Part shown: piece by piece, positions 32,739-59,400 of the stretch | Layout: every line of letters starts with the position of its first letter | How positions within the stretch are numbered: the first letter of the stretch is position 1 | The notes under the pieces: generated by a model | Seen by the model: only the letters and a program-made list of their open reading frames with translations | What the model was told of the DNA's origin: nothing | The model's database searches: none | DNA from: a virus | Lineage: Duplodnaviria > Heunggongvirae > Uroviricota > Caudoviricetes | Reading direction: 5' to 3' (one strand) | Length of the DNA stretch: 64,000 nt | Virus record (IMG/VR): IMGVR_UViG_3300031867_000014 | Coordinates: 1-64,000 of that record | Position numbers and translations under genes: made by a program

Positions 32739-32740
32739 AC

Positions 32741-36841: not shown

Positions 36842-36865
36842 ATAATAAAGAATGAAGAAAGAGGA

Positions 36866-39800: not shown

Positions 39801-40762
39801 CGTTGATTAAAGCAGGCGCATTTGATCATTTTGATGAGCGTAAAAAAATTATGGCTCAATATCTATGGATGACTTGTGATAAAAAGAAGAGAATCACTCT
39901 TCAGAATATGGCAGGTTTAATTCGTAGAAATATGTTGCCAGCAGAATTAAATGATCAGCGTCGAGTATTTGAATTCAATAGATATCTCAAAGATCAATGT
40001 AAACACCCGATAGCACCAGGTGGATATCTATTGGACGAAAGAGCGATGGGGTTCTTGCAAACTTATGAGCGAGAGCTTGACATTGAAATCAAAGCGGGTG
40101 CATATTGGATTAATGAAAAAGTATGGGATAAAGAATATCAGCGGCAAATGGATAAAGTGCGCGAATGGATGAAAAATAATCAAGCAGAAGCACTTTATCA
40201 GTTAAACAAGACAATTTTCCAAGAAGATTGGAATAAATATGCAATGGGGAACTATTCGTCATGGGAAATGGAAGTTATGTGCTTCTATTATCATGAACAT
40301 GAATTAGCCAATGTGAATCGCACAAGATATGGCCTCAGTGATTATGCTCAGTTGCCAGAAGAACCAGTGGTGGAAACTCTATGGCGGAATCGTATTCCGA
40401 TTTATAGATTAAGTCGTATCGCAGGAACAGTGATTGCAAAGAATAAGATTAAATCTACCATTGATCTTTTGACAACATCCGGAGTTGTAACCGTGAAATT
40501 TTCAAAAGAGTTTTTCGCATTATTTGATCGTCAGATCAGTCAACGTGGCGCGGATGGTGTGAAACATGTGGTTGAAAAATCATGGTTCAATCGTGGAAGT
40601 ATGTTGGTCGTAACAGGTATGCGCCGTGGTGATGAATTTGTATCGAAGAAATATTCAGCGACTCCTGGACATCAGTTGTATAAAATTGATACGATATTTG
40701 CTAACGGCAACATAGCACTGAGAGCAGAAAGAGCACAGGGAGAAAGCGATGAAAGCGAGTAA
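36866..40762 (+). CDS. DNA polymerase III alpha subunit (PHP domain plus DnaE/PolC-type catalytic core)
   Basis: N-terminal PHP 'HNHTVYS...ITDHE'; 1298 aa. Confidence 0.85.
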   Translation: MLDMAFFNDHNHTVYSNLRLVDCINKPKDLIDRAIQLGLSGLAITDHEALCCHIEVNQYAKKIKEQHPDFKIALGNEIYLTDTREPRQQYYHFILIAKDALGHKALRILSSKAWYNTYYWVQERVPTLKSELEEVMKEYKGHVIATTACMGGEASSMLMREALAAKAGLQDEQAHAQLTKFIDWCIKVFGKEDFYIECAPSAYADQIECNHKLLRLAMSEDLKMIPGTDSHYLSKDLRFAHKAYLNSKDGEREVDEFYQYAYLMSEEEARNLLRLSFNDEAILDWLFENTQILQNSIEDYSLERPQQIPMVSINPPAPAAWWGVNNPYADDFGSDGCYKTLGSLFTSSEPQERQWVNDVWEALNEKIGFWGDHEDYVARLETEADVIKFIGERLGTCLFAYFNTFKHYIDLFWECGSIVGPGRGSATGFLSNYLLGITQLDPMKWNLPWWRFLNKERAELPDIDIDLAPSVRPEIFKRIREERGELGCVQVVTFGTEGTKSAIQTACRGYRYQDEDGKELYPDGIDNDIALYLSSLIPQERGFLWSLDDCIKGNADLGRRPVHTLIAELNKYPGLLEIIQNIEGVVKQRGIHASGTILYDANHIFDTAAIMRSKEGDLTTCYDLHMCEAAGDTKYDFLVTEVCDKMIQCLNLLKADGAVEDMSLRELYDKYLHPEVIDTTDPQIWEHLAAGDVLDVFQFNSGVGLAMAKAIKATNPLEMTAANAMMRLMSEPGMESQQDRYVRIRDGGLIQFDKEMHRAKLPEKMIAAMHKYCDTYYGCCAIQEQMMQILMDPDIASFSLKDANDARKIVAKKQMKRIPELRQKVYDAVGENADYIWEIAVRPQLGYAFSLNHSLPYSFVGIQTIILATKFSPVYWSTACLIVNSGAVDPDAGGQTNYGKIAKAVNDMKSRGIDIEPVDINTSNYEFTPNAEKNQVMFGMKGLLNVGDDIIAQIIEKRPYKSFLDFIGRVKITRQPMISLIKAGAFDHFDERKKIMAQYLWMTCDKKKRITLQNMAGLIRRNMLPAELNDQRRVFEFNRYLKDQCKHPIAPGGYLLDERAMGFLQTYERELDIEIKAGAYWINEKVWDKEYQRQMDKVREWMKNNQAEALYQLNKTIFQEDWNKYAMGNYSSWEMEVMCFYYHEHELANVNRTRYGLSDYAQLPEEPVVETLWRNRIPIYRLSRIAGTVIAKNKIKSTIDLLTTSGVVTVKFSKEFFALFDRQISQRGADGVKHVVEKSWFNRGSMLVVTGMRRGDEFVSKKYSATPGHQLYKIDTIFANGNIALRAERAQGESDESE

Positions 40763-41330
40763 AGTTATTGTGTGTCTTGTGGGCAAGAGTGGGTCAGGTA
40801 AAGACACTCTTGCTCGCAAACTCGCGGAACAGGTGGGTTGGAATAATGTAGTATCCTGCACGACCCGACCCAAGCGAGAATATGAAGTTGAAGGTAAAGA
40901 TTATTACTTTTTAACCGATGAAGAATTCGCGCAGAAAGTCTTGAATGGTGATATGTTAGAAGTAACATATTTTAATACTTGGCACTATGGAACAATGAAA
41001 TCTGCGCTAAGTAATGGAATCAATGTTGGTGTTTGGAATCCCGAAGGATATGATTGCTTGCGGGAAAGTGTAAAATATGATCCAGATATTAAGCTATTTG
41101 CTTATTATTTAAAGTGTGATGATAAAACTCGTCTACTACGACAGCTGAATCGAGAAGAACATCCAGATGTGCATGAAATTGTGCGCCGCTTCGGCACAGA
41201 CGAAGAAGATTTTGAATGGCTTGAGGATGATGATATTCCTATTTTATGGAATGAAGATATGACTAATATGCGCGTGAATGCTATCAATATTTCGACCGCA
41301 GTTAGTGAGTATTTGGACGATGTTGTTTAA
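40749..41330 (+). CDS. deoxynucleoside monophosphate kinase (T4 gp1-like P-loop kinase)
   Basis: 'VGKSGSGKDT' Walker A motif. Confidence 0.6.
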   Translation: MKASKVIVCLVGKSGSGKDTLARKLAEQVGWNNVVSCTTRPKREYEVEGKDYYFLTDEEFAQKVLNGDMLEVTYFNTWHYGTMKSALSNGINVGVWNPEGYDCLRESVKYDPDIKLFAYYLKCDDKTRLLRQLNREEHPDVHEIVRRFGTDEEDFEWLEDDDIPILWNEDMTNMRVNAINISTAVSEYLDDVV

Positions 41331-41377
41331 GCAATTTATCTCAACTACCATATATAGTATACGCCTATAAAGGGGGA

Positions 41378-43642
41378 TTGTATACCTTGATTACAAAACG
41401 TGATGGTCGAAAAGTAGAATTTGATGGCGACAAAATCCGCATCGCTGTGGCTCGCGCATACTGGGATCCAGAATATGCACCAGAAAAGCCATTCCCGCCA
41501 TATGTGGAAGATATTGTTACCTATATTGAAGAAGAGAATGAAGCTTATGATATTTCAGTAGAAGAAATCCAGGATATTGTTGAAGACTTTTTAATGAAAT
41601 ATGATCCAGCTACAGCTCGACGTTATATTCGTTATCGTTATAAGAAAGAAGTTATCCGCGAACAGAAGGATGATTTCTTTATGCGTTTGAAACCAAAAAT
41701 TGAAGCAACAGCAGTTCAGAATCAAAATGCCAATGTTGATGAATATTCATTTGGTGGGCGTAAAGGCGAAACTGATTCTGAGGTTATGAAAGAATATGCG
41801 CTAAAATTCTGTATGAGTGATATGGCGCGTAAGAATCATGAAGAAAACATGATTTATACTCATGATCTTGATGCATATGCTGTTGGTATGCATAATTGTT
41901 TAACTATTCCTTTTGATGACTTACTTGCAAAGGGATTTAATGTGCGACAAACTGATGTGCGGCCTGCGAATAGTGTAAATACCGCAATGCAGCTTGTGGC
42001 AGTTATTTTCCAGTTGCAGTCTTTGCAGCAGTTTGGTGGTGTAAGCGCCAGTCATTTAGACTGGACTATGGTACCATATGTGCGCAAATCTTTTTATAAA
42101 CATTATTGTGATGGATTAAAATATTTAATGGATATGGATGATGCATCTATTAATGATGATATTGATTTTCCATTCGCAAAAGATGTGAGTATTGATGATC
42201 GTAATGCGTATCATCGTGAAAAGCCTTATAAATATGCTTGGGATATGACCCGCAAAGAACTATTCCAAGCTGTTGAAGGAATGTATCATAATCTTAATAC
42301 TTTACAGAGCAGATCTGGTAATCAGCTGCCATTTACTTCAATTAACTATGGAACCTGCACATTAACGGAAGGTCGTTGGGTAATTGAAGCATTATTGCAG
42401 GGATCTATTAAGGGCGTAGGCAAATTACATCGTACACCTATTTTCCCGTGTGGTATTTTCCAGCTGATGAAAGGAGTTAATCGTGAACCAGGAGACCCAA
42501 ACTACGACATGTATCGTCTTGCGCTTGAATCCACAGCACGCAGACTTTATCCAAACTATGCAAACTGTGATTGGTCAGGCAATGCTGGTTTCGATCGACA
42601 AGATCCTTGCACCTATTTTAGTACTATGGGATGCCGGACTGCCAATGGAGCAGACATTAACGCTGAACCTGGAGTCAATCCACAACGTAAAGATGGACGA
42701 GGTAATCTCTGCCCGGTTACCATCATTCTCCCAACAATCGCAATGATGGCCAAGGAGGCCGTGGAGGCTGGCACGCGCGGGGACGATGACGGCAATTCAA
42801 AATCACTCTGGGAAATTTTCATGGCAATTCTTGATAAAAAGATCGTCGAAGCAAAAGATCAGCTTATTGAACGCTATGAATATATGTGTAAACAAGATCC
42901 ACGATCTGCACAGTTTATGTATGAAAATAATACTATGCTAGGTTATCATCCTGAACAAGGTATCCGTTCTGCTCTGCGACATGGAACATTGGTAATTGGT
43001 CAGCTGGGTCTTGCAGAAACTCTTGAGATTCTTGTCGGCACAAACCAGTGCCATCCAGAAGGCATGGAAGCTGCAAAGAAAATTGAGCAACTCTTTAAAG
43101 ATCGTTGCGCACAATTTAAGCAGGATTACAAATTAAACTTCGGCGTCTATTATACTCCTGCAGAAAATCTTTGCTATACTGCCATGAAGAAATTTAAGAA
43201 ACGCTATGGCTCAATTCCTCACGTATCGGATCATGAATACTTTACAAATTCTATTCATGTTCCAGTGTGGGAAAAGGTTGGCGTGCTTGATAAAATTGAT
43301 ATTGAATCACAATTAACTGGTTATAGTAATGCTGGTTGCATTACGTATGTTGAATTAGAGACTGGCATTGTAAATAACTTGGAAGCTATGGAACAAATTG
43401 TAAACTATGCTATGGATCATGATATTCCATATTTTGCAATCAATGTTCCAAATGATACTTGCCTGGAATGCGGCTATACCGGAGAATTTAATGATCGTTG
43501 TCCTCTCTGTCATAGTACCCATATCCAACAGTTACGTCGTGTAACTGGTTATCTTACAGGCAACTATAAGACAGCGTTCAACTGGGGAAAACAAAAAGAA
43601 GCAGAAGAACGTGTAAAGCATACGGGGAGGATGGATACATAA
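41378..43642 (+). CDS. nrdD: anaerobic ribonucleoside-triphosphate reductase
   Basis: C-terminal glycyl-radical 'RVTGYL' and CxxC..CxxC zinc ribbon; ATP-cone-like N-terminus. Confidence 0.85.
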   Translation: MYTLITKRDGRKVEFDGDKIRIAVARAYWDPEYAPEKPFPPYVEDIVTYIEEENEAYDISVEEIQDIVEDFLMKYDPATARRYIRYRYKKEVIREQKDDFFMRLKPKIEATAVQNQNANVDEYSFGGRKGETDSEVMKEYALKFCMSDMARKNHEENMIYTHDLDAYAVGMHNCLTIPFDDLLAKGFNVRQTDVRPANSVNTAMQLVAVIFQLQSLQQFGGVSASHLDWTMVPYVRKSFYKHYCDGLKYLMDMDDASINDDIDFPFAKDVSIDDRNAYHREKPYKYAWDMTRKELFQAVEGMYHNLNTLQSRSGNQLPFTSINYGTCTLTEGRWVIEALLQGSIKGVGKLHRTPIFPCGIFQLMKGVNREPGDPNYDMYRLALESTARRLYPNYANCDWSGNAGFDRQDPCTYFSTMGCRTANGADINAEPGVNPQRKDGRGNLCPVTIILPTIAMMAKEAVEAGTRGDDDGNSKSLWEIFMAILDKKIVEAKDQLIERYEYMCKQDPRSAQFMYENNTMLGYHPEQGIRSALRHGTLVIGQLGLAETLEILVGTNQCHPEGMEAAKKIEQLFKDRCAQFKQDYKLNFGVYYTPAENLCYTAMKKFKKRYGSIPHVSDHEYFTNSIHVPVWEKVGVLDKIDIESQLTGYSNAGCITYVELETGIVNNLEAMEQIVNYAMDHDIPYFAINVPNDTCLECGYTGEFNDRCPLCHSTHIQQLRRVTGYLTGNYKTAFNWGKQKEAEERVKHTGRMDT

Positions 43643-44178
43643 TGCGTTACGCCGGTATTATATATGATGATACCGCTGCGGCACCTGGCTTATGTTTATC
43701 TTTTTATACTCAGGGTTGTCCCATTCATTGTCCTGGATGTCACAACCCTGAGACCTGGGATGAAAATGGTGGACATGAATTCACCAGTCAAACTATTGAT
43801 AATATTATACACGGACTTACAAAAAATAATATTCAACGTAGTTTTGCTATCTTGGGTGGCGAGCCTTTGGCTCCATATAATTTATTTTTAACAGCCATGG
43901 TGGTATCGACAATTCGTGATCATTTGCCGCAAGTGCCTATTTGGATTTGGACAGGTTATACCATGGAAGAAGTTATACAGAATACAAGTTCACCACATTT
44001 AAGAGCGATTCTTTCTAAAGTGAATGTATTAGTAACTGGACCTTTCGTAGAAGCAGAACGTGATATAACTTTAAAATGGCGTGGTTCACGCAATCAAAAA
44101 GTATTCCGATTTGATGACACAAAAAATTTATGGTATAATATAGAAAATGAGGAAGAGGAGTTTAGAATAAATGTCTGA
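43642..44178 (+). CDS. nrdG: anaerobic RNR activating enzyme (radical SAM)
   Basis: 'GCPIHCPGC' cluster; coupled to nrdD. Confidence 0.8.
   Translation: MRYAGIIYDDTAAAPGLCLSFYTQGCPIHCPGCHNPETWDENGGHEFTSQTIDNIIHGLTKNNIQRSFAILGGEPLAPYNLFLTAMVVSTIRDHLPQVPIWIWTGYTMEEVIQNTSSPHLRAILSKVNVLVTGPFVEAERDITLKWRGSRNQKVFRFDDTKNLWYNIENEEEEFRINV
44110..44139 (+). promoter_or_regulatory. early promoter inside the 3' end of nrdG (TTGATG, 18 nt, TGgTATAAT)
   Basis: Family motif followed by 'ATAGAAAATGAGGAAGAGGAG'. Confidence 0.55.
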
Positions 44179-44632
44179 AACACAAGAACCTATTTTTATG
44201 GAACAAGATGAATATTTAGAGTATTTGCGTAATCAGATTAAAGGAAATCCCGAATTAGCATCTACTCCTATTGCTCAGCTAAATATGTATCAAATGAATA
44301 AAGATTTGGTCAAAGGTTTAAAACATATGAACAATATGGCCATTAATAAAGCCCTCGAAAAAGTTGCAGAATGGTTTAAACCTGAAATTTCTCATTATGC
44401 GCTACTTAATCATGAACATCATTATTTTACGATTTTTGAAGCTTCGGATCATATGAGCACTGAGTCATTTATTGCCGCACTTAAAGATATTCTTATGAAT
44501 TATTATGGCGATAATGATATTCGGGCGATTGATGTTCAAGACGATGGTGCAGTAGAAATTTGGGCTATGTGGGATCAAGAGCCTACAGTTGCTTATCTCT
44601 TTCCATATAGTCAAGGAGTTGTATATTATTAA
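44171..44632 (+). CDS. hypothetical protein
   Basis: 153 aa ORF. Confidence 0.5.
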   Translation: MSETQEPIFMEQDEYLEYLRNQIKGNPELASTPIAQLNMYQMNKDLVKGLKHMNNMAINKALEKVAEWFKPEISHYALLNHEHHYFTIFEASDHMSTESFIAALKDILMNYYGDNDIRAIDVQDDGAVEIWAMWDQEPTVAYLFPYSQGVVYY

Positions 44633-44895
44633 TGGATAAAATTGGATATTTAGATTTTAGTGTGGTTAATCCAACTTTGTTCACTTTCGTTGATGACAGC
44701 GGAACTGAGCATAGATATGAGTTTGAAGTACAAGAGCCACAAGATTGTATTAAGACAGTTGCGACATTAATTCAGCAACATGGTCTTACTAAAGTAGTAT
44801 GCAATAAAATTGGTTATGGTCTGTGCGGTAGTATTTCACAGCATCTAAGAACCGTTTATGGTAATACTAATTGTTTCTTTGAATTAAACGATTAA
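44632..44895 (+). CDS. hypothetical protein
   Basis: 87 aa ORF, coupled. Confidence 0.45.
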   Translation: MDKIGYLDFSVVNPTLFTFVDDSGTEHRYEFEVQEPQDCIKTVATLIQQHGLTKVVCNKIGYGLCGSISQHLRTVYGNTNCFFELND

Positions 44896-44906
44896 GGAGA
44901 AAATAT

Positions 44907-45140
44907 ATGGCGCGTTATCTATTGAATGTTGTTGAAACTTATCGAGTCCCTACTGTAAATGAGGCACTTGAAATGCGTGATGAAATGAATAGTGCGGCAG
45001 AATATGAGCTACAGTCTTTTCAGTACACCACGAAATTTAATAAGAAAACTGAAGAAGAATATCAGATTGTAAAGGTTAAGAAAGTTATCAATACTGAGAA
45101 AGATCCAGTTTCTGGAGTGCAGGTGCATTATGAGTATTAA
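44907..45140 (+). CDS. hypothetical protein
   Basis: 77 aa ORF with RBS AAGGAGAA. Confidence 0.45.
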   Translation: MARYLLNVVETYRVPTVNEALEMRDEMNSAAEYELQSFQYTTKFNKKTEEEYQIVKVKKVINTEKDPVSGVQVHYEY

Positions 45141-45732
45141 GGCTGGATTTGAAAAGATTAGTAAATATGCTGATGATCCGGGAGTAATTATTCCATATAG
45201 AAAGACTAAAAATTCTGCGGGTTATGATTTCTATGTGGCCGAAGATACAGTAATTCCCGCTTATGAAAGTTATATTCTTAAAGATTTCGAGAATGAACTC
45301 GCGGGGGATCTTACTGAATATTATCATAGTTTTGAAGAGTTTTTAAAGACTACTCCATATGATTTAGGAACGGTGGCATTATTTACCAAGAAGTATAAAA
45401 AGAAAACTACATTGGTTCCAACAGGTGTAAAGGCTTATATGCCGGAAGGTTACTACCTACAGTTGAGTATGCGATCAAGTCTTCCTCATAAGCACTGGAT
45501 TATGATCGCTAATGCACCTGGAATTATTGATGCAGATTATTATAATAATCCTGATAACGAAGGCCATATTTACTTCCAGCTCGTAAACTTCCTACCGTTT
45601 GATGTAGAATTACGCAAAGGCGATTGTATCGGTCAAGGCATTTTCTTACCTTATGGCGTAATTGAAAATGATAGCGCGGAAGGCGATCGTGAAGGCGGGT
45701 TTGGCTCTACCGATGAAAATCCTAGCACTTGA
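45130..45732 (+). CDS. dUTPase/dCTP-deaminase family protein
   Basis: 'NSAGYD' and 'GIIDADY' dUTPase-fold motifs. Confidence 0.7.
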   Translation: MSIKAGFEKISKYADDPGVIIPYRKTKNSAGYDFYVAEDTVIPAYESYILKDFENELAGDLTEYYHSFEEFLKTTPYDLGTVALFTKKYKKKTTLVPTGVKAYMPEGYYLQLSMRSSLPHKHWIMIANAPGIIDADYYNNPDNEGHIYFQLVNFLPFDVELRKGDCIGQGIFLPYGVIENDSAEGDREGGFGSTDENPST

Positions 45733-46198
45733 TTAGGCCACCTAGACCACTGGGTGGTCTACTTGGATTGATGGAGCCTTGACCGATTTCGGCAAATTTA
45801 CATATGATGATGCCGATATACATAAGCGCATACATAAAGTATGCACTTAGATTGAAATACTTTTACTTCAATAGAAACCAGATAAATTGGTTCTTGAAGA
45901 TATACAAATGCAAATTAATAATGTAGCGACATTTTAGAAGCTAGCCTGGCTTCAAGGTGCTATTATTGAGACTTGCTGGAAACTCGGATTGCCTGTGGAA
46001 CTGAGCCGCCCCTCTGAATGGCGTGCGGCATGTAATCTCTTGAAAGGTCAAGATAAGCACCGAGACAACCAAAAGAAAGTTGCTCAAGAGTGGGTCATGA
46101 AGAAGTTTGGGAAGAAATGCACACAAGATGAAGCAGATGCAATTTGCATTGGTTACGCGGCAAGTCTTGCCGAAGATAATGAAATGAATTGGGAGTGA
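45713..46198 (+). CDS. ruvC: RuvC-family Holliday junction resolvase; 5 in-frame TAG codons (45734, 45743, 45848, 45872, 45935)
   Basis: ATG 45713 overlaps the dUTPase-family gene end. The translation 'MKILALDQATQTTGWS...LVLEDIQ...DEADAICIG' has the RuvC N-terminal, central and C-terminal acidic motifs, with Q at each TAG. The ORF caller found only the C-terminal 69 aa. Confidence 0.75.
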
Positions 46199-46617: not shown

Positions 46618-46662
46618 AAAAAAATTTGGGGCGACTCATTAAGAGTCGCCCCATTTTTTTTA
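46618..46662. terminator. bidirectional intrinsic terminator between convergent transcription units
   Basis: A-run, then ggggcgactc-atta-agagtcgcccc, then a T-run. Confidence 0.75.
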
Positions 46663-47232
46663 TTTCTCTTCAGAATGATCATGTAAAGGAAGTGCACGAA
46701 TACGCTCATCCCAAACATCCATGTGGCCATTGCCACCAAGATTATGATAAAGAGTTAAACGTTCATTATATTGCATTAATTCAATCGGAGTTATATAACC
46801 ACGCTCTATATAAACTTTACATGCCGCAATAAGATTTTGTAAATGTAAATCGAGAACACCACGTTGTAACAAACGTGCGTCTTTTTTACTGTCTTTCATT
46901 TCATCTCGGATTTCTTTAACTGATAACTAAAGATCTTTTACAGTAAGTAAGATTTCATTATCAATCTTAGTGCTGGCTGCTTCTGCTTGCTCAAATTTTT
47001 TATCAATTGCTTCATTCATGGTTTTGATTTGACAAGCACATTTTTCAGCCATAACATCTGATTCACGTGCCATGTCATCCCACTCCTTTTGCTTACGAGT
47101 TTTTGCTCCTAATTGTTGATCTCTTTTTTTAGGATCAATTACTCGTTTTACAATCCAACCAATGAGGCCAGCGGCTAATACCGGAATGCCCCACTTTACT
47201 AAGGTTTCTAAGACCAAAGCCCAAGTCACCAT
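46660..47232 (-). CDS. membrane protein (N-terminal TM; candidate spanin or holin-associated); 1 in-frame TAG (46927)
   Basis: ORFs 46927..47232 and 46660..46899 are in frame across a TAG. Confidence 0.55.
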
Positions 47233-47532: not shown

Positions 47533-49221
47533 TCAAGAGGCTACTTTCGCTTTTGCTAAGAGCGACGCTAAGACTTTTGCTTGCGCTTCGCTGTCGCATT
47601 CGATTCTGACATAATATTTATTGTTGTTCTCTGAGCCATCTACTTTTACCAAATATGTATTTTTCATATAGCCGGACTTTCCGTTCCAGGTGATAGCTGA
47701 CCATTCGCCTTCAACAGCGGTTACATCTACGATCTGTCCGAATTTTACTGTCGTAACAATGCTAGTAGAAGTACTAGGACCGCTACGCATATTCACAGTA
47801 GAGCCAGAAGTTCCGGTTACTTTAGCTTGATAAGCCACCTTAATCACCTCAGGTTCATTCTCCTGATCTCCTTCTTGTGGATCAGGTTCTGTTGATGGAG
47901 TCTCTACTCCAGATTTTTCATATAGTAATTTTTCTGTCGCGGTATCTACAATACCATTTGCAGTAAGACCATTTTTAGTTTGGAAACTAATTAAAGCTTT
48001 TTCAGTTTCGGCGCCGAAATCACTATCAGCTCCATATTTAGGCAAGGTCTCACCAACTTTTAACAACATTTCTTGTAATAATTTAACACTCGCACCGTAG
48101 GCTCCACGTTTTAAATTAGAAATGGTAATCACAATATTAGCACCATTATCATATAAACCCGCTGGAATACCCCAATGGGTCCAACGTCCATATGCTTTAA
48201 TAGTGCTTTTTACCACACCAATTTTACTGCCTGCGGCATGAATAAATGTTTGACCATCACCTAAATATAAACCAGTATGGCCCATTTTTCCAGTTGATGC
48301 ATCTTTGCGATAAAGGCAGCACACTTTATCTGCTGGCAATGTATCAATTGTACCTTTGACTTCAAATTTCGTTTTGTTCCATTGAGAAGTTGCACCAGAA
48401 ACCATTTGAATACCAACCTATTTCATAGCTTGTTGGACAAATCCTTGACAGTCAAATACTTGTTTGCCAATCCATTTACTAACAATAGATGGGTCCACAT
48501 GATCTGGATATTGATTATGTTTAGAATTAATTAAGGCTTGCGTACACGTTTGACCTGCTGTGCCCCAAATATAACCACATTGTGGATCTAATTTCGAGTA
48601 GGCCCAGTCCACAACTACCTGAGCTTTTGTTTTTTCAGCCACAGGAACCACTTCCTTTTCGGTGCCGTAATTGCTACGGACTTCTGTGCCGGGGTAATAA
48701 AACGCCAAGATTTCTTTATAATTAAAACCTTGTTTTGCCATTTCTTTCGCGCCAGTCTAGGACATGCCGACCCCATGTCCATTTTTTGTCTTGGTATCAT
48801 AAGGGTCATCTTTTGAAATAAGATAACCTCTTACACCGCCCCATACTTCTTGTGAAGAACGAATACGTCCACCATTTGATGCGCTATACACGCAAGTTCC
48901 GCACAAACCGTTATTGTAATATAAGACTTCCCCTTTTGTCTCTTCTACAGCTTGCATTGCATTAGGATATGAAGAGGAAATTCTAGACGCACGGAACGCT
49001 TGATCAATAGAACTTTTATCTGTAATATACCCTTTTCCTTTTGATCTTGATAATGCGAATGTACGAGCTGCTACTGCTTGTGCTTTGCATGCCTCAAGAA
49101 GAGAATTACCAATTTCACTTGGTACTACACCCTTACAATATTCTTCCATATCTAAAAGGACTTCTTCAGCACCATACTTGGTTAAATTCTCTTCTCGAGA
49201 TAATTTTACCTTAATCTGCAT
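47533..49221 (-). CDS. multidomain cell-wall hydrolase: SpoIID/LytB domain, NlpC/P60 peptidase, PG-binding domain and SH3; 2 in-frame TAG codons (48757, 48418)
   Basis: Three ORFs are in frame across TAGs. The first TAG sits exactly where the SpoIID family has Gln ('GHGVGMS-Q-TGAKEMA'). The NlpC/P60 Cys motif 'FDCQGFV' and His motif 'HTGLYLGDGQTFIHAAG' span the second TAG. Ends with TGA. Confidence 0.85.
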
Positions 49222-49866: not shown

Positions 49867-51804
49867 TTATCGTACTTTAATCCAAATACGATTATTGACT
49901 TTTACATTGCCTGTACCCCAAGTTTCATACTCTGGAATTTCTGAAACAATACCTACAATACAATCAGGATACATCATTATTTCTTCACGAGTCATAATAT
50001 CAACAGTGCCATTGGGCGCTGAACAAACGGCCATGCCCGCATGATATTCTGAACGATCACGGTATGGATAAACTAAAACTCGACCAGAAACAGCTAAAGG
50101 CGTTTTAGTAGTTTCAGTTTCACCAATAGCAAAACCAAATGTGTCTGATACTACCGATGCGCCTGGAAGTAATCTTTTATCTGTAATATTTAAAGAACCA
50201 TCGTCATTATCTACAACACATTGTCCTGGTTGAGCTTCTTTATTAGTTTTACGTAATTCAGCATAGTCATTCCAAACAGCACCATAAATTAATGCATCTG
50301 TTTCTGTTTTTTTAGTCGTACCATTTGCAGAGATATAAAGACCAAAATAAGTACTAGCTGTACTATCAGCCAAGTAACGGTATGCGTATATACGATTACG
50401 GACAACGCCACTAGTATCAACATAACAATATAACATACCCAAACGATTTTTTGCAGCAGTACCAGTACCAGCTTCTAAAATCTAAATATAAGGACCAGTT
50501 GATGCACTTGGATTTGTACCTTTAGTAACTGTCGTACGTAAACCTAAATTACCAGTTAAAGTTCCACCGCTTAATTTTAAATATGTGCTATCATGATTAT
50601 GATTACCGACGGCAACAGTTGTGGCCGTAGTACCAGTAGGAAGTGTAAATGCCAATGCACCAGCACCACCATTGGCAGTTGCTGTATATGTAAAATTACT
50701 CCAAGAACCTGTTGTATGATAATAGTTAGTGGTAGTATCTGCTGGTGTTTTAAACACAACTGTTGTTCCGCCCGCTGTCAATGTATAAGCTGTATCGGCA
50801 GCCAAATTTATAGTAGCTGTACCGCCAGCTGCTAAACTTGTAGTATGAGTGTGATTACCAGCCGCCGCGGTGGATGCAGTGCTACCTATTGTTAATAATG
50901 TAGGCATAGTAAAAATTACTGATGATCCACCTGCTGTTAATTTATATTTTCCTGCAGATGCAAGTGTAATACTGCTTGTACCAGTATCAGTAGCCAGAGA
51001 TGCAGTATGTGTATGATTACCAGCTGCAGCAGTAGTTGCAGTAGAACCAATTTTAGGTGCATATGTATCTGGTTTACCAGTCACATTACTCCAAGCAACT
51101 CCACCAGCAGTACCAGTACAATTGCCGGTGATGGATGCGGTAATACCACCGGGCACTGTTATATGACCAGTTGATGGATTAATGGTTGCTACTTTAGTGG
51201 TATCATTAGGAATAACACCATATAAATCTTTACTACCAGAAGTAAAAGCAGTATATGCACCAGCATTACTAGTAGAGGCACCGACAATTGGTAACTCTGT
51301 TGTTGATGCAAGAGCATAAGTCCGCTGTAATGTATTCGTGTTTGTATCATAATAAGCATTAGTGCGCCAATCGGTACCTGTCCAGGTCATTACCATTACA
51401 GTACCCGCTGGATAATGCGTGGTTAAACGTGTATTACCAGCATAGACTGCATAGGCTGATGTTTGAGAGCCATCAGCTAAAGTTAAAATTAAAGATGCAT
51501 TACCACTACCGTCTTTTGGTAATCTATATGCAATCGTTTTACCAACATATAATGCTGGACTTCTGGTAACACCAGTCCAGGTACCAGTTGCTGCAGTTTG
51601 TGTACCATTAATATATTCAACACCGTCTAAAGACGTATCCGCTTGGGCTGCATTTAAACATATGCGGCTAGTTAAAGAAGCACTAGTTGCGGTGCTAAGA
51701 TCTACATAAAACTTATGATCATCGGTCGTAACATAGCAATAGCCTTCTGTACTATTGGCCGGTAAATTTGCGGCCAAGCCTTTTTTTATTTTAAAAAGTG
51801 CCAA
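49867..51804 (-). CDS. tail fiber protein with internal 'AAAGNHTHT.SLA' repeats; 1 in-frame TAG (50482)
   Basis: ORFs 50482..51804 and 49867..50442 are in frame across a TAG. TTG start with RBS GTGAGGTG. Repeats are visible at both DNA and protein level. Confidence 0.7.
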
Positions 51805-51830
51805 TCTTCAGCACCTCACTTATATTTAAA

Positions 51831-53702
51831 TTAGAATGTATCCCAGGTTACGCCACCATAAATATCGACACCTGCGATAGTAGCAAATTTATCACCTGCA
51901 CTAAAGTAAGTAGTTAAACCAATATTATGAGTCTTACCTTCAATAGCAGTGACGTGACCTTCTTTTGATACAGTTAAACGAGGAATTGTGAAAGAAATCT
52001 TATTACTACTTACAGATAAATCGCCGCCAGTAGAACCAATATTAGATTGAGCGGCACTAAATGGCTTTGGATGTGAGATAGTAATTACATTAGATTTTGA
52101 AGTACGAACTGTAATACTATTTTCACCAGTTAATTTGATGCCCTGGAGATATGGTTTTGTTGTCGTGGTTAAATCGCTATATGCACCTAGACATAAATTA
52201 AGATAAGCGACGTTATCACTGGCGGTAGATTCAGTTTGATTAGCATCTGCCGCTTTAGAAGAAGTAAATCCGCAATTTAATCTAAAGGAAGCAGTACGAC
52301 CATTAAATGTGGTGGTAGCAGTATTTGAATTTAATGCCAAACTTAATGATTGAGCTGTAGTAGTTGCAACACCTGTACCAACAGTAATTTCCGTTGCGCT
52401 AGTTACTTTATTAGAACTATTCATTGCTGCAACATAGAATAATTTACTGTTAGATGACATTTGAATCAAATCGCCAACTTGTACGTCTGAATAAGTTTTA
52501 TTGACAGGAGTTGTATCAGTAGAACTATCAATTTTTAAATTTAATAATGCTTCTTTTGGCATTAAACTTGCTGGGATTGTCCAACCAGTTGCGCCTGAAC
52601 CCCAGTCAATTGCCCCTAATTGAATATTACTTGCTGGTGCGGCGCCGACACTATTATAAGAAATTGTGCGGCCATCAGAACCATTATAACTACCAGTCGT
52701 ACCACTATCACCATTACCTGTAGTAGAAAATGCTAATGTAGCTGGGTTAGCAACACCCGCATCCTATATGTCAGCCCAAGTTTTAAATCCATAACCTTCA
52801 ATATCACTTGTTGTCACAGCAGTAGCCGCTGTTACATGACCTAATGCATCTACGGTTACTTTATATAAATTAGCTGCATAAGCAGTATGTGATGGGTGCG
52901 TATAAATAGTTAAAGTTTTATCGGCCAAAGCAGTATAACCGCTTGAAGTAAGAGCATGACCAAGAATTTTTAATTGACCATTTGCTGGTGTACTAAGTGC
53001 ATTTTGAATACCTTCTAGCAAACGTGGGCCATTAATTAATCTAGCCGTAGTAGCGGATGCTGAAGTAATTTCAGCTTTAGTTGCTAAAGCATATGTCGTA
53101 TTGGTATCTCTATTTAAGTCATTTAATGCAATCCAATTTGTTCCATCGTAATAGAAAATAACAGTACGATTAGCACACAGCATATTTTTAGTAAGTGCTG
53201 CTACAGAATAACTACTTTTAATATCTTTGGCATTAGTGGCTTGGCTACCTGATTCTAACACTAATTTAGTCGGCGCTACGCCACTTGAGTTAGATGCTGC
53301 AGTAAATTTAATTGCTACCAATGTACCAAGAACAGGGTCATTATTAGCATCCATTGGTAATACACCATTTGCCATTGTTGCTGTTTTAACGGCAGTGGCA
53401 TCAGTTGATGCACAAGTTGCATAAAGACCAATACCAGGTACAATAAGGTTAGATGTCTAACTACCATCATAATTTTGTACTGTTAAACCACCAACCGCAG
53501 TAGCGGTACCAGTAAGAGTAGTAATAGCAGATGTTGCATCATCAGCCAATTCTGCATTAAGTTTATATAAAGCTATATCTGGTAATTTAACACCAAGATA
53601 ATGATTAGCAGTATCAAAATATAATGCACCATCAGCCGCAGAACTTGATGCAGGCATACCAGTGCCATATTTTACTGACAATAAAGTTGTTGTATCAGCC
53701 AT
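51831..53702 (-). CDS. tail fiber/receptor-binding-like protein; 2 in-frame TAG codons (53457, 52764)
   Basis: ORFs 53457..53702, 52764..53375 and 51831..52562 are in frame with open gaps. ATG 53700 is preceded by TGA at 53723 of the upstream gene. Confidence 0.7.
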
Positions 53703-53722
53703 ATAGTTTTACACCGTCCTTC

Positions 53723-54316
53723 TCATAAATCATTCCACCATAAAGTAGTATTTCGCATAATGCCTGCCAATACCTCATCCAAACTATAAGCATTCAACAG
53801 CCCACTTTCATATTTGGCGGCAACAGATGGAATACTTTTCATTACGGTACTACTGGCTGGCTTTGTACGTAAACTATATGTTAATTCATGCGTGGTTAAA
53901 TCAATTTGGAACAAATGAAATGCAAATTCTAATGTTCCAGCTTGGATAGATGCATTACCATGAATACACCATCCGAAAATAATATTGCCAGGTTCACTTG
54001 CAATATCTTTTACAATAATAGGAGCTATATAGCTTTCTCCCTTGGCATTAACATATTCTACAACCAAAACCATCTACAATAAATCAACACCATCATAATA
54101 ACGCGGCATACGGAAATAAAGAGTCTCCGCATAATGATCTTCACTTACTGAAATAAATTTATTATACGGAGAACTCTTTAAATTAATCTCACGATTGATC
54201 AAGTCAACATCAATAATACGTGATTTATCATATGATTGTGTTAATACCATCGTACGATGGTGTGTTTGTACTTCTGTTAATAGATCAAGGAAGGCTTGTT
54301 CATTGATCATTGCCAT
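53723..54316 (-). CDS. baseplate/tail-associated protein, paralogous to the N-terminus of the 54342..56141 protein; 1 in-frame TAG (54074)
   Basis: ORFs 54074..54316 and 53723..54073 are adjacent and in frame across a TAG. Shared motifs with the downstream protein: 'LYFRMPRYYDGVDL' vs 'LWFQVPRFYDMTDL' and 'AGTLEF'. Confidence 0.65.
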
Positions 54317-54341
54317 AAAAACCCTCCTTGGTAAATATTAA

Positions 54342-56141
54342 TTATATAGTCACTTGAATAATATTAGCACCTTCAACAATTTGATTGTGCTCATCACGAT
54401 AATATTGTTCATAACCATTAATACCATGACATACAACTTCTGCAACGAAAACAGTTACTGAATACAAACCAGCCGCTGCAGATGGAACCAATTCTGATAA
54501 ATCAAATGATGCATCTGCACCAATAACAAATGGTTCTGGTAAACTGATATTTGTGAATGTCTGTGCGCCAACTGGAGCAAGAGATAAACGATAACGATAT
54601 TCACTATCAGTGTAAGCACCATTAATGTGGACATTAATCTTCTTGGCATTATTTTCATCAATAGAAAGCATAATATCAGAAGTAGTTAAAAGACGAGGCC
54701 ATTCATGAGCTTCAACAGATGGTGTAATGGCTTCAGTAATCATTAAGTTCTTTACGTTACGTGCTTTCGCATAATACTTGCCGCGTTCAGTCAATACACG
54801 AGATAAATCATTTTCTTCAGTAACAACAATGTTATCAGACATTGGAGTATCATTCTTATACCAGCAATAATCTACACGGCCATTGGCTGAAGCAAAATCA
54901 ATATCAAAATCAACCTTTGCTGGCTCACCGGCATTAACATAAATGTGAGGCGGTATTACCGGAGTTTCTTTTAACTTAATCTGAGTAGCTTCTTCCAAAG
55001 TTACAGTTTCAGTTTGCACATAACGAATACCATTATAATTGGAAACTTCTGGATTAATAATTTTGTTGCCAACATATACACGATACTTACCGGGTACATT
55101 AGTAGTTAATGTACTACTTGAACCATCTGCAGCAGTAACAATTTGTACATTTGGAGTAGCCTCTAACTTTGCTGGGTCAAAATCTACGCCTTCACCATGT
55201 TCACCGACTAAATTATTATTCCAATACCATTGATATACAATCTGTGCATTTGGAGTAACAACTTCATTAGCTTCATTGCGTGCTTTCAAATCACCAGTAG
55301 TTTCGTCTACAAATAAAGTTAAACCAGCATTATCTGGACTAATTGCGCCAACAGTAAATGTGATAGTATTGGTTTCAACATCAAGATCATATTTACCTTG
55401 AGTAAGCGTAGGACGTAAGATAGGCTCTGCCGCATCCAAAGAATTAACAATTTCACTATAAATTGCACGATTACGTACGATCTGATCAAAATTATCATCC
55501 AAACGGACAGTAGTACCAATTGTCATACCAGGCTTAATGACTAATTTTGCTGGCTGCAAATATAAACTGAATTGGGTCTGTGTAACATCGTTTTCATCTG
55601 TTGCAACAGAATAGAAACGAATACTAAATTCCAAAGTACCTGCGACCAAAGCAGCATTTTTACTGATATACCATCCAAAGTATAAAGTTTCACCATCGCA
55701 ATATTTAGCAAAAGGAGGAGTGTTATATACTTCTTCATCTACACCAGAACGATTAGTATTGCGCCAAGTAATATCAATATTACAAGTCATTAAATCTGTC
55801 ATATCATAGAAACGTGGTACTTGGAACCACAAGAATTCAGCTAAATGATCACCGACAACGCCGACACCATTTTGCGCGAAAATTTTAGGGACAGTAACCA
55901 CACGAGCTTCGGTATCAATCTTGAAAGTTTCTTCATTGAATGGAACACGAGCATAAATTGGATAACGCTTGTGACCATTCTTTAAAAACTTTGCTAAAGC
56001 TCTATAATAAATATCTAAAAGGTTAGAGCCTAAACCAAGAATATTATCACCAAGAGTTTCATTAGCGTCGAATTCAAATTGAGTTTTGAAATCAGGATCA
56101 TTAATGAACTTATCTTGCAAACTTTTTAAAGTTGTGATCAT
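54342..56141 (-). CDS. tail/baseplate structural protein (599 aa)
   Basis: RBS GAAGGGAG; an intact ORF with no TAG. Confidence 0.6.
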   Translation of the reverse strand: MITTLKSLQDKFINDPDFKTQFEFDANETLGDNILGLGSNLLDIYYRALAKFLKNGHKRYPIYARVPFNEETFKIDTEARVVTVPKIFAQNGVGVVGDHLAEFLWFQVPRFYDMTDLMTCNIDITWRNTNRSGVDEEVYNTPPFAKYCDGETLYFGWYISKNAALVAGTLEFSIRFYSVATDENDVTQTQFSLYLQPAKLVIKPGMTIGTTVRLDDNFDQIVRNRAIYSEIVNSLDAAEPILRPTLTQGKYDLDVETNTITFTVGAISPDNAGLTLFVDETTGDLKARNEANEVVTPNAQIVYQWYWNNNLVGEHGEGVDFDPAKLEATPNVQIVTAADGSSSTLTTNVPGKYRVYVGNKIINPEVSNYNGIRYVQTETVTLEEATQIKLKETPVIPPHIYVNAGEPAKVDFDIDFASANGRVDYCWYKNDTPMSDNIVVTEENDLSRVLTERGKYYAKARNVKNLMITEAITPSVEAHEWPRLLTTSDIMLSIDENNAKKINVHINGAYTDSEYRYRLSLAPVGAQTFTNISLPEPFVIGADASFDLSELVPSAAAGLYSVTVFVAEVVCHGINGYEQYYRDEHNQIVEGANIIQVTI

Positions 56142-56479: not shown

Positions 56480-59400
56480 TTAAGATGTAAATAATACTGT
56501 AGTAGCGATAGAATCATTCGCAACTTTTGGAACCGCACCAAAATGTGTTTCTTTCCAAGTCTTAAATGAACTATCAAGAGCATAAAATGCTTCTGCACTC
56601 TGTTCTAAATTAGCAGCTGTACTATTTTGTATAGTAATGATAACATTTTTTAACTTCGCCTAATTCAAACAATTTTCATTGAAATTATAAGCTCCAGCCT
56701 TTAAGCGTACTGCGTCTAATGTCCAATAAATTGTATCATTAAATGTAACGCCATAAAATGCTCCAGCTTCCATACCCATAATATTTGCACTAATTGAAGT
56801 TAAAACAACAGAGGTGTTACCAAAAACGTTTGCTTTTAATTGAGTAACATTATTTGGAACAAAAGCTAAACGTAAATTAGAACAATTGTAGAAAGCACTA
56901 GAACCTAATGTCTGTAAGTTTTGACCGCTACGAGTATATGCGGCTTCATCCTCAAACATTGATAATTGTGAACAACCATTAAATGCACTATTACCAATCT
57001 CAGTAATATATGGGAATAGGTAAGAAGCAGCCCAGCATAAATTTGTACATTGAGCGAATGCATTAGCACCAATATTGGCGAGATAAGTAATATTGACTTC
57101 TGCCGCATTATCATGTTGAGCATCATATAATGCTACTGTTGTTAAACCAACACAGTTTTCAAAACATGAACGTCCAATATATCTTATGGCTTGTGGGAAA
57201 CGTGCAACATCTAATGTTGTGCAATTCTTAAATGTATAAGCACCAAGAGTAACCATTGCTGCTGGTAAAGCAGTACCAACTTTTAAGCTATTACAATACA
57301 TAAAAGCGCCTTCTGCGGTAGAATTGTTTTCACCAATCATTTTTAAATTTGGACAACCAGCAAAATCTACATAATCCAAATTATAACCAGCAAAAGCAAA
57401 GGAATGAATATATTGTAAAGTATTACCAGCTTCAAAATAAATGCGGCGTAATGGCGCATCCGTAGCAGAAGCTAATGCTTCTTCTAAAGCGGGCTTAGCA
57501 CTTGCTGTAGTACCGGGATCAGCTAATTTTTTCACATAATAATTCGCTGCTCGTTTAGTATTATTTAAACCAACAACAGTCTAACCATTATATGTTTTTG
57601 GTATAGTAACCGCGGTATATGGATAATTATCCTTCAAAGTTAACATTACACCAGTAATTGTGCTAGAATCTGCAGTTACTTGTTGTGTTACTGACGATGA
57701 AGTAAACCAGCTTTCAGCTGTCGCAACATCTTGCATATTCTATGGATTACTAAATTGTGGATAAATTTTAACAGTATAACTATTATTTTCACTACCATGA
57801 GTTACTTGTTTCCATTCATTACCCCAATTAATTGTGGTATATACTGTCGTATGTGTTCTATCATTTTCATCACAAACGATTTTTACAATACCCAAATTTA
57901 AAGTGGCAGGATCAGTAGCAGATTCACGATAACGTACCGATTGTACATTAGCTACACCAGCTGTTAATGGATCGTCGGAATTATAGAATTTAACTGTATA
58001 ACGAGTAATTTCTGCAACATATACTGGATAAAAATTAACTTCACGATGCTTATTATCAGGAGTCAATGCAAAATCATCAGCAAAAGTATAAGTAGTACCA
58101 TTATATACATATAAGTTGTCTGTCTTAATGTATTCATTTAATTCTGCTTGCTTTTCTTCTTCAGTCACAGCATTAGCACTTGGCGTCCAAATATTATTTT
58201 CATTTAATAAATCAATAATTTCATCACTCTTATAATAAGTTATTTCACTATTATAAGTTGTTGGATTATTTTCATTAATCGTTGTCCAAGAGACATCTAC
58301 ATAAATACTAGAAGCTGCACGCGCTGCTGCATGTGCTTGCGCTAAAGCCGCTTCTGGATTTTGAGATTGATTAGTTGCTGCTTCAATAAACAAGTCAGTG
58401 TCTTCATCATCAGAAGTCTTAAAACCAACCAAACGATAAGTATATTGTACTTCTTTCGGCTTACCAAATTCACGGACATCTAAATGTGCACATAATTGCT
58501 GCGCAGATAATGTTGGCACAACATCAAAAGTATACTATTTAGTAAAATTAGTAATTGCAGTTTTATTAGTATTAAAGAATGAAACAGTATAAGAAGATGT
58601 TACTAAATCATTAGTATCATAAGCGATCTCTAAATTTGGATAACAACCACTATATTTTTCTTTAATTGCAACTGCATTAAGGCCATAATTCATACCGTTA
58701 TTAATTTTAATGGTACCACCAACATAATAACGTGTTGCAACTTTTGAGTTAGAAGTCGTAGACCATGGAGCAGAACCTTCAAGACCAGCTGTAGTAATTA
58801 ATTGATTTAAAATTGGGAAATCAACAATCATTGTGCCACTGGCATCAAGAGTACATTCAGTTGGATCTGTTGGATCTAATTTCCAATTCAAATCTGTTAA
58901 TTGAATATGCGCGACTGCATTGGTTTTATTCTTTGCAGCCTTAAATAAAGATTTTGTATCTAATTTTGGACAACCAGAAATATCTAAGTAGTCCAAACTT
59001 TCCCAACCATCATTATCACATTGTACTGTGGTTAATAATGGCTAATCATGTAATGCTAAAGTAGTTAATGTATTAGGTACATAAACTGTCTCTAAAATAC
59101 CGCCAACCGGGAATGATACAGTATTCAAATATGTATTTTTTGCAGAGAAGATTCTTAAATAGGTATTTGAAGATACATCTGCTGCCGTTAAAGACATATA
59201 TTGATTATCTAAGTTGGCCACTTGTAACAATGGATATAAACCACCATCAAAACGAGTCCATGGATTCTTTTCATTATTACCATTCAAACCGCGATTATTG
59301 CGTTGAGCTTGCTGATAAGCATTAAGAGATACATCAAATTCACGCAATTTAAATTGAGTATTAACACCACTATTATTAGTAACGTTAATATTAGCCATAC

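Follow-up and report, generated by a model that had tools for sequence, protein, structure and literature searches.

In-frame TAG codons, probably read as glutamine, in the lysin and other genes of a tailed phage

Two TAG codons in a lysin frame

Is the amber codon TAG a stop in this phage, or is it read as an amino acid? The question is raised by a minus-strand lysin gene (47533..49221) in the 64-kb window, i.e., the whole stretch of DNA analyzed here, which appears under the standard code as three ORFs: 48757..49221 (154 aa, ending in TAG), 48418..48741 (107 aa, ending in TAG), and 47533..48405 (290 aa). All three share one frame, and reading through their junctions yields a 562-aa protein from a single 562-codon frame, interrupted by two TAGs only and terminated by TGA; the split at two TAGs and the shared frame are as an earlier sequence-only reading had described. 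Family models matched two catalytic domains in this product, namely SpoIID/LytB (aa 23–184; TIGR02669 SpoIID_LytB, 1e-45; PF08486, 2.8e-17) and NlpC/P60 (aa ~250–340; Pfam NLPC_P60, PF00877, aa 253–338, 1.1e-7), followed by PG_binding_1 (aa 376–433) and SH3_3 (aa 474–524) domains. The lysin resembles the SpoIID/LytB family in both model matches and in the motif GHGVGMSQxGA, and the NlpC/P60 family in its PF00877 match and retained Cys-His pair. It differs from both families in that the two catalytic domains are joined to PG_binding_1 and SH3_3 within a phage lysin, and in that one conserved Gln per catalytic domain is spelled TAG.

The first TAG (codon 155, 48757–48759) takes the Q position of the SpoIID motif GHGVGMS-Q-xGA, which it completes as GHGVGMS-[TAG]-TGA, while the second (codon 268, 48418–48420; context QAMK-[TAG]-VGI) lies between the NlpC/P60 catalytic Cys258 and His315 and is spanned by the PF00877 match. 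D257-C258 and H315 were invariant in a 28-sequence alignment, in the papain-like Cys-then-His order. Aligned lysin homologues carried Q in 26/27 cases at codon 155 and in 20/27 at codon 268, with the limit that relatives' lysins in the public protein database are already translated with TAG as Q and that, since this holds for many database homologues, some of their Q may be TAG. At the SpoIID site matching codon 155, Q is also found in PDB 4RWR, 5TXU, and 5I1T, solved structures that read GHGVGMSQ(Y/W)GA. Majority-Q columns make up 14 of the 562 positions in the 28-sequence alignment, and both TAGs are among them (P ~6e-4). Both placements proposed from the letters alone were borne out. Among close relatives, codon 155 is CAA/CAG in L001 and L006 and TAG in L003, codon 268 is CAA in L001, L003, and L006 and TAG in L002, and lysins at 81–97% identity carry TAGs at other sites within the gene. 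A blastn search with the lysin gave no match in the GenBank phage collection. Because a stop codon occupies a near-invariant motif residue, this lysin offers a clean teaching example.

TAG usage across the window

Over the whole window, 11 of 58 genes proved to contain in-frame TAGs, at least 36 in total, and none of the 11 has an in-frame TAA or TGA, so that the earlier claim of interruptions by TAG and never by TAA or TGA holds well beyond the lysin. Conversely, the 58 curated genes terminate with TAA (41) or TGA (17), and none with TAG. Beside the lysin, a membrane protein (46660..47232, minus strand) with an N-terminal TM helix and similarity to PHROG 4105/4257 (function unknown) has one TAG (46927–46929) that aligns with CAA/CAG in L001, L002, and L006; it is possibly a holin or lysis regulator. 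The densest recoding among window genes was found in a RuvC-like Holliday-junction resolvase (45713..46198, plus strand; Pfam RuvC, 27 bits), in which 5 of 161 codons are TAG (codon starts 45734, 45743, 45848, 45872, and 45935). TAG75 of RuvC is common to L001, L002, L003, and L006, and 33 of 37 IMG/VR RuvC homologues carry TAGs; alignment of the RuvC TAG sites to PDB structures was weak.

A late block of tail-fibre/baseplate-like genes (49867..56141, minus strand) includes 49867..51804 (TAG 50482–50484), 51831..53702 (TAGs 52764–52766 and 53457–53459), 53723..54316 (TAG 54074–54076), and the TAG-free 54342..56141. Beyond it, a giant late ORF on the same strand (56480..64000), with a BspA-type LRR at its C-terminus, runs for >2506 codons and past the window end. 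This ORF contains 12 in-frame TAGs, no TGA, and only a terminal TAA, whereas its two alternative frames hold 93 and 344 TAA+TGA, and from base composition the probability of encountering no TAA/TGA over 2506 codons is ~4e-62. At the left end (810..3326, plus strand), a further block of recoded late genes encodes a structural-type protein (810..2138; 4 TAGs at 1299, 1431, 1680, and 1911) and another lysin-like protein carrying SH3_3 at its C-terminus (2568..3326; 3 TAGs at 2871, 3135, and 3246). PHROG and Pfam returned no function for most tail-region proteins.

The early/replication module (3418..45732, plus strand) is readable with the standard code, TAG-free except for ClpP and PhoH, and uses TAA or TGA as stops. 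It includes RNA-repair genes, RNA ligase, topoisomerase II subunits, DNA ligase, DnaB, primase, RecJ, and Pol III alpha, along with guanylate kinase, NrdD/NrdG, and dUTPase, and its replication and nucleotide-metabolism genes are translatable by an unmodified host. The two exceptions lie at 16958..18860 (plus strand), inside a block otherwise devoid of TAG: a ClpP-like protease with one TAG (17015) and a PIN-PhoH ATPase with four (17694, 18084, 18219, and 18264). PhoH TAG246 stands opposite a Q of PDB 3B85, and ClpP TAG20 opposite a D. Overall, recoding is concentrated in the blocks of tail-fibre and lysis genes, with RuvC, PhoH, and ClpP in addition, while early genes are host-code readable; since PhoH, ClpP, and RuvC fall outside the classical late set, the "late-gene" rule is a loose one here. 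An apparent depletion of CAG in TAG-bearing genes was set aside, as it reflects the ordinary AT-richness of late genes, in which GAG and AAG are equally low. As a separate observation that may merit a closer look, the RNA-repair genes (Ro-like/vWA protein, RNA ligase, and polynucleotide kinase) have almost no A-ending codons.

Relatives, tRNA(CUA), and the meaning of TAG

TAGs in metagenomic relatives (L001–L006 and L078) affect the lysin, RuvC, the lysin-adjacent membrane protein, and tail genes, some at identical positions, and the suggestion that the set of recoded genes is specific to this genome therefore does not stand. The closest large relative, the 149-kb IMG/VR contig IMGVR_UViG_3300028833_000076, is syntenic with the window at 60–92% amino acid identity, and TAG interrupts its genes for RuvC, the membrane protein, and a baseplate-like product. 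A 155-aa protein at the left edge of the window matched 66 IMG/VR loci, which have only that module in common. No window protein had an identical counterpart in the assembly collection, and a 46-mer taken from the start of the window had no exact match in IMG/VR. In-frame TGA opposite W was also observed in relatives.

No tRNA was detected in the 64-kb window by ARAGORN or Rfam, nor any other Rfam family, and about 40 window proteins scanned (a subset of the ORFs) included no release-factor or tRNA-synthetase domain, hence the decoding agent is unseen in the window. The 149-kb relative, however, carries a 12-tRNA array including a tRNA(CUA) (L299, 1810–1901), and tRNA(CUA) genes were found in several other family contigs. 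These tRNAs measure 86–95 nt and have a 20-nt insertion in the variable region (extra arm); in an approximate comparison with reference tRNAs, their D and anticodon arms are closer to tRNA-Trp (72–83% identity) than to tRNA-Gln (63–73%). The more tRNA-Trp-like body and the 20-nt arm make their charging uncertain, and this unusual long-arm tRNA(CUA) may merit further attention. Within 10 kb of nrdD, no tRNA was found in 80 family loci.

Could the TAGs instead be real stops, i.e., mark pseudogenes, amber mutants, assembly errors, or separate small proteins? This would fit the splitting of the genes by a standard-code ORF caller and the presence of ATG codons 5–6 codons past each lysin TAG. Yet these ATGs lack the AGGAGG-type ribosome-binding site seen at neighbouring genes, termination would place the NlpC/P60 Cys on one fragment and the His on another, all 36 interruptions are TAG with the frame kept throughout and TAA/TGA absent, TAG terminates 0/58 genes, and the same genes are TAG-interrupted in independent assemblies (ENA, NCBI, Logan, and IMG/VR). 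TAG is thus a sense codon in the window, and its reading as a stop is already contradicted and very improbable. Some anaerobic Firmicutes decode UAG as pyrrolysine, and with an anaerobic Clostridia-type bacterium as host, a host or phage Pyl system might come to mind, all the more as ARAGORN labels every CUA tRNA "tRNA-Pyl". This label derives from the anticodon only, however, and tRNA-Pyl has an atypical structure unlike the canonical tRNA model, whereas the CUA tRNAs of relatives fit the standard model from end to end (55 bits) and have the canonical T-loop GGTTCGAAT. With no Pyl genes among the window proteins scanned, and with TAG sites aligned to Gln rather than Lys-like positions, pyrrolysine is a hardly credible meaning for these codons.

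Sequence comparison makes Gln by far the best-supported meaning. The non-TAG codons of close relatives opposite window TAGs are CAA/CAG in 11 cases and others in 4, and across 80 IMG/VR family loci, relatives' in-frame TAGs face a window Q in 98 of 268 cases (next, E in 39), a ~10-fold over-representation of Q without any excess of W (3/268), with counts across relatives being phylogenetically non-independent. A sense meaning other than Gln could nevertheless be envisioned, be it Trp, Glu, or Ser/Leu/Tyr via a long-arm (class II-like) tRNA, or mixed decoding, given the length, insertion, and Trp-like arms of the relatives' tRNA(CUA), and the residues facing some TAGs: D in ClpP; W, Y, R, K, A, and L in RuvC relatives, including W opposite RuvC TAG46 in 21 relatives; and E, D, or K opposite several TAGs. 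In addition, many Gram-positive bacteria have no GlnRS and obtain Gln-tRNA via transamidation, so that Gln charging of a CUA tRNA is non-trivial. On the other hand, the two sites under the strongest constraint (SpoIID SQ and PhoH GQ) are occupied by Q in standard-code homologues, the excess opposite TAG concerns Q and not W, and close relatives swap TAG for CAA as well as CAG; as CAA is two mutations away from TAG, these exchanges favour synonymy over mutational proximity. Moreover, an amber suppressor derived from tRNA-Trp, su7 of E. coli, is charged largely with Gln. Taken together, we regard a non-Gln meaning as improbable, and the TAG-to-Gln assignment (code 15) advanced from sequence alone is upheld by the Q alignments, the TAG–CAA/CAG exchanges in relatives, and the absence of TAG terminators. 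Peptides with Gln at TAG, such as GHGVGMSQTGAK, would be proof.

Known recoded phages and a possible translation schedule

TAG-to-Gln recoding as seen here is an already described phenomenon, and the published picture is unchanged. Protein-level proof of Gln at TAG comes from crAss-like phages only, two of which were covered by metaproteomics (Peters 2022, PMC9523058). Crassvirales and Lak megaphages have the same TAG reassignment and late-gene bias, but have Bacteroidetes hosts and genomes unrelated to the window, the replication genes of which resemble SPbeta-like and phAss-1-type Firmicutes phages, and the lysin of which is a Gram-positive-type SpoIID + NlpC/P60 + SH3 enzyme. An anaerobic Gram-positive host had been taken as new for recoding, which precedents contradict: Borges et al. 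(bioRxiv 10.1101/2021.08.26.457843) described alternatively coded phage clades with Firmicutes or Bacteroidetes as predicted hosts, reporting Firmicutes-infecting members and a bias of recoding toward late and lysis genes, and Babkin et al. 2023 (PMC10607447) described phAss-1, which reads TAG as Gln and is predicted to infect Clostridia. As described, the code-15 clades of Borges et al. (e.g., Agate, Jade, Sapphire, Garnet, and Amethyst) resemble the window and its relatives: structural and lysis genes are recoded TAG-to-Gln with standard-code-compatible replication genes, recoded modules are scattered along the genome, some members encode a suppressor tRNA(CUA), a single family can include phages of code 15, code 4, and code 11, and the genomes are 100–200 kb in size, sampled from the gut of animals and humans. 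In that study, TAG terminates 34 of the 146 genes of a standard-code Agate phage. The dense recoding of RuvC and that of PhoH and ClpP are unmentioned in that paper.

Among GenBank phages, the window Pol III alpha is best matched by that of phAss-1 (OQ749652; proposed Phassvirus group), which has homologues for 18 of the 58 window proteins, including NrdD/G, topoisomerase II, RecJ, DNA ligase, NADAR, PhoH, and RuvC. Recoding of TAG to Gln affects ~28% of phAss-1 ORFs, its variably recoded genes include ClpP, PhoH, holin, and tail fibre, and it carries tRNA-Sup(CUA), one with the same long extra arm. Amino acid identity to the window is only 24–43%, however, and no late gene is in common. Membership in the Phassvirus genus was rejected, as this requires ≥80% nucleotide identity and synteny including structural genes, which the window does not show. 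The phAss-1 suppressor tRNAs lie directly upstream of nrdD, a location where the window has none: the candidate region proved to be NrdD ATP-cone coding sequence with no RNA gene.

Very probably, then, the window represents ~64 kb from a large tailed phage that infects anaerobic Clostridia and uses genetic code 15 in part of its genome, with TAG read as Gln; the full genome would probably span 130–180 kb. We infer a suppressor tRNA in this genome, along with its charging and a role in timing. In the likeliest mechanism, host release factor 1 would terminate at TAG early in infection, leaving only a 154-residue stub of the lysin and ending RuvC translation after 7 residues. A phage-encoded amber-suppressor tRNA(CUA), the gene of which would lie outside the window, would then build up and insert Gln at TAG, allowing the lysin, the resolvase, and virion proteins to be made at full length late in infection. 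The window adds a further lineage to the phages in which translation of lysis and packaging genes has to wait until the phage alters how the cell reads TAG, here a large, mostly rumen and gut lineage without a close GenBank relative. For annotation, table 15 is required, as table 11 fragments the lysin, the resolvase, tail fibres, and a >2500-residue protein.

A more speculative and, in our view, unlikely extension is that translation in this lineage proceeds in three tiers controlled by the supply of tRNAs. The RNA-repair set, nearly free of the A-ending codons served by phage-encoded U34 tRNAs, would form the first tier, this near-absence making it translatable before phage tRNAs exist or during attack on them. 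The AT-rich bulk of the genome would depend on the phage tRNA set, and RuvC, lysins, and virion genes would be TAG-locked until the unusual tRNA(CUA), with its Trp-like body and conserved 20-nt arm, arrives. Possible leads to novelty are the dense RuvC recoding, the odd suppressor tRNA, and the RNA-repair genes with their purged codon usage.

Glutamine sites in the lysin and its relatives

The lysin gene (47533..49221, minus strand) forms one frame of 562 codons with two interruptions, both TAG, at codons 155 (48757-48759) and 268 (48418-48420) in single-frame translation. As a sequence-only reading had correctly described, the standard code splits it into three minus-strand ORFs of 154 aa (48757..49221), 107 aa (48418..48741), and 290 aa (47533..48405). 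Pfam matched the fused protein to SpoIID (aa 23-102), NLPC_P60 (aa 253-338), PG_binding_1, and SH3_3, and NCBIfam TIGR02669 (SpoIID_LytB) matched it at 1e-45. Both placements proposed for the TAGs were borne out: TAG155 completes the SpoIID motif at its Gln position (GHGVGMS-TAG-TGA), and TAG268, across which the NLPC_P60 match runs, is flanked by the NlpC/P60 residues D257-C258 and H315, invariant in the alignment.

In the fused-protein alignment, the TAG155 column was Q in 26 of 27 database homologues, the remaining one being a deletion, and the TAG268 column was Q in 20/27, with E, A, or T in the others. Majority-Q columns make up 14 of the 562 lysin positions, and two random positions would both fall on one with P of about 6e-4. 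Since some homologues had already been translated with TAG as Q, we also compared solved structures from standard-code bacteria: at the TAG155 site, the SpoIID structures 4RWR (Bacillus anthracis) and 5TXU and 5I1T (Clostridioides difficile) read GHGVGMSQYGA and GHGVGMSQWGA. Elsewhere in the window, a Q of PDB 3B85 aligned with one TAG of the PhoH-like gene, and the ClpP-like gene's TAG aligned with D, i.e., a conserved Gln does not lie at every TAG site.

The nearest lysins, 81-97% identical over their full length and found on ENA, NCBI, and Logan metagenome contigs, are stored as full-length proteins, yet their loci fail to yield these proteins under table 11 because in-frame TAGs lie inside the gene, at codons partly different from those of the window. 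Among four close metagenomic relatives (L001, L002, L003, and L006), codon 155 is CAA, deleted, TAG, and CAG, respectively; codon 268 is CAA, TAG, CAA, and CAA; and codon 264, CAA in the window, is CAA, CAA, TAG, and TCT. Over all genes common with these relatives, window TAGs faced 17 TAG, 11 CAA/CAG, and 4 other codons. CAA lies two mutations away from TAG, so that exchange with CAA points to synonymous codons and not merely to mutational neighbours. For 80 more distant IMG/VR family loci, the window had Gln opposite 98 of 268 in-frame TAGs, an about ten-fold enrichment in counts that are not phylogenetically independent; Glu was second-commonest (39/268), and Trp was found at 3/268. Separately, the 97% identical lysin of L002 (1773-3440) has a 21-nt in-frame deletion that removes exactly GMS-TAG-TGA, the SpoIID motif core including the recoded codon, and retains the second TAG; either genuine variation or faulty assembly may account for the deletion.

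Distribution of TAG across the window

With TAA and TGA as sole stops, long ORFs fuse throughout the window. Among 58 curated genes, 41 end in TAA, 17 in TGA, and none in TAG, while at least 36 in-frame TAGs, and no in-frame TAA or TGA, occur in 11 of them, confirming that only TAG interrupts and that the frame is kept. A giant example, ORF 56480..64000 (>2506 codons), ends in a BspA-type LRR and contains 12 in-frame TAGs with no TAA or TGA before its stop, against 93 and 344 TAA+TGA in the two alternative frames. TAG-bearing genes comprise a minus-strand tail-fibre/lysis block (46.6-64 kb), a plus-strand late block (0.8-3.3 kb), RuvC (45713-46198; 5 TAGs in 161 codons), a PIN-PhoH ATPase (4 TAGs), and ClpP (1 TAG). 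The genes for RNA ligase, topoisomerase II, DNA ligase, DnaB, primase, RecJ, Pol III alpha, NrdD/NrdG, and dUTPase have none.

No window gene is more densely recoded than that of the RuvC-like resolvase. Its codon-75 TAG is common to all four close relatives compared, and a sum of 149 TAGs is spread over 33 of 37 IMG/VR homologues; the literature on phage recoding that we examined makes no mention of RuvC. In the late block, a second lysin-like gene (2568-3326), at the opposite window end, has three in-frame TAGs. Its product has a C-terminal SH3_3 and an N-terminal domain with a Cys that looks NlpC/P60-like by eye, with no Pfam match to that family; with both lysins recoded, the phage is predicted to have two recoded wall hydrolases. 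For the GIY-YIG protein (26533-27528), the probable start is 26533, giving it a TM helix and coiled coil; this start would add an in-frame TAG at 26656 for 37 TAGs in 12 genes, and 12/19 IMG/VR homologous loci have TAGs. NrdD starts at TTG 41378, behind a GGGGG ribosome-binding site, with the ATP-cone LITKRDGRKVEFDGDKIR (41378-41593). Database gene calls start relatives' NrdD 72 codons downstream of this TTG, and in L002 codon 72 of NrdD is an in-frame TGA. Among IMG/VR loci with homologues of the window NrdG (43642-44178; loci L076-L155), some family members have in-frame TGAs that face Trp (17 cases), so that the family also has TGA-to-Trp (code 4) phages, and others have TAGs even within NrdD, RecJ, and helicase genes.

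Decoding agent and competing readings

No tRNA or Rfam family was found in the 64-kb window, and none of about 40 window proteins scanned had a release-factor or aminoacyl-tRNA-synthetase domain. In IMG/VR this is a large phage family, whose contigs measure 100-200 kb. The stretch from DnaB to the tail genes is syntenic (60-92% aa identity) between the window and the closest large member (L299, IMGVR_UViG_3300028833_000076, 149 kb). That contig bears TAGs in RuvC (5) as well as in the membrane protein and a baseplate-like gene, and encodes elsewhere a 12-tRNA array. This array includes a 92-nt tRNA with anticodon CUA (1810-1901; Rfam tRNA model, 55 bits). Given this gene and similar tRNA(CUA) genes on other family contigs, we infer that a phage suppressor tRNA is likely the agent in the window's genome too. 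The tRNA(CUA) of relatives (L299, L225, L205, L213, L167, L215, and the TAG-to-Gln phage phAss-1 [L074], 12445-12532) are 86-95 nt long, with a ~20-nt variable-region insertion containing the conserved CTCTGAAG, a motif found exactly in 58 IMG/VR stretches; our literature search found no description of this extra arm. Anticodon-UUA tRNAs, of the ochre-suppressor type, occur in two arrays also holding tRNA(CUA) (L057 19795-19868, L185 2898-2972), and L057 also encodes tmRNA.

That the TAGs are real stops, delimiting pseudogenes, errors, or separate small proteins, can be excluded: TAG alone interrupts, the frame is preserved, and the same interruptions recur in independent assemblies. As fragments, moreover, the lysin would have its catalytic Cys and His on different pieces, and neither of the ATGs that closely follow the lysin TAGs is preceded by a good ribosome-binding site. 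Pyrrolysine is unlikely, since the relatives' tRNA is canonical, the TAG sites are Gln sites, and no pyl genes were seen among the window proteins scanned. The case for a sense codon other than Gln lies in the relatives' tRNA(CUA), which has the insertion, G73, an A1·C72 mismatch, and a D arm and anticodon arm resembling those of tRNA-Trp more than those of tRNA-Gln. However, Gln is the main amino acid charged on E. coli su7, a tRNA-Trp-derived amber suppressor, and this precedent would reconcile a Trp-like body with a Gln reading; we regard another amino acid as very improbable.

Host, published recoding, and codon-biased genes

Overall, the reading of TAG as Gln (code 15) is well supported, with Gln-aligned TAGs and no TAG terminators, and is a known phenomenon, correctly recognised, in a lineage that has no close relative in GenBank. 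The suggested anaerobic Gram-positive host was reasonable: all 29 lysin relatives in the genome collection (28-45% identity) come from MAGs assigned to Clostridia or related Bacillota taxa, with one Chloroflexota exception, many being gut Christensenellales of ruminants and humans. A Clostridia-type host also agrees with the anaerobic ribonucleotide reductase and with the Gram-positive-type lysin architecture. Contrary to what had been thought, such a host is not new, Firmicutes or Bacteroidetes hosts having been predicted for alternatively coded phage clades (Borges et al., bioRxiv 10.1101/2021.08.26.457843) and a Clostridia host for phAss-1, a 136-kb phage that has 41 TAG-containing ORFs and encodes three copies of tRNA-Sup-CTA (Babkin et al. 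2023, PMC10607447). Nor is the recoded gene set specific to this genome, since relatives carry TAGs in the lysin, RuvC, membrane protein, and baseplate-like gene. Borges et al. also reported structural and lysis genes in alternative code, standard-code replication genes in some clades, codes 11, 15, and 4 mixed within clades, and suppressor tRNAs in 35-40% of genomes; the window's split between TAG-bearing and TAG-free genes is the published code-15 phage pattern. For crAss-like phages, proteomics has proven TAG=Gln (Peters et al. 2022, PMC9523058), code-15-detecting gene callers exist (PMC11210395), a "Caudoviricetes code 15 clade" is listed in NCBI taxonomy, and the protein database had already translated relatives with TAG=Q. 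The best GenBank match of the window polymerase is phAss-1 (38%), with which the window has 18 replication and metabolism genes in common (24-43%).

Three RNA-repair-type genes of 48-50% G+C, i.e., a DUF2828/DUF7788 'RNA-binding protein' (3731-5248), the RNA ligase (9007-10428), and an AAA_33 kinase (14907-15407), nearly lack A-ending codons outside GNA. They use 0 AAA against 70 AAG for Lys and 0 CAA against 30 CAG for Gln, lack CCA, ACA, and AGA, and contain TTA, TCA, and ATA once each, with GAA (44), GTA (20), GCA, and GGA freely used. The bias is retained in relatives L345, L347, L356, L359, and L349 (57-85% aa identity) and missing in others (L351). One bias-keeping relative lies on a contig whose tRNA array serves CAA, CCA, ACA, AGA, and TCA, which suggests, as a lead rather than a result, that these genes are maintained in a form that can be translated when the phage tRNAs are absent. 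A weaker form of the same bias is seen at 28255-29190.
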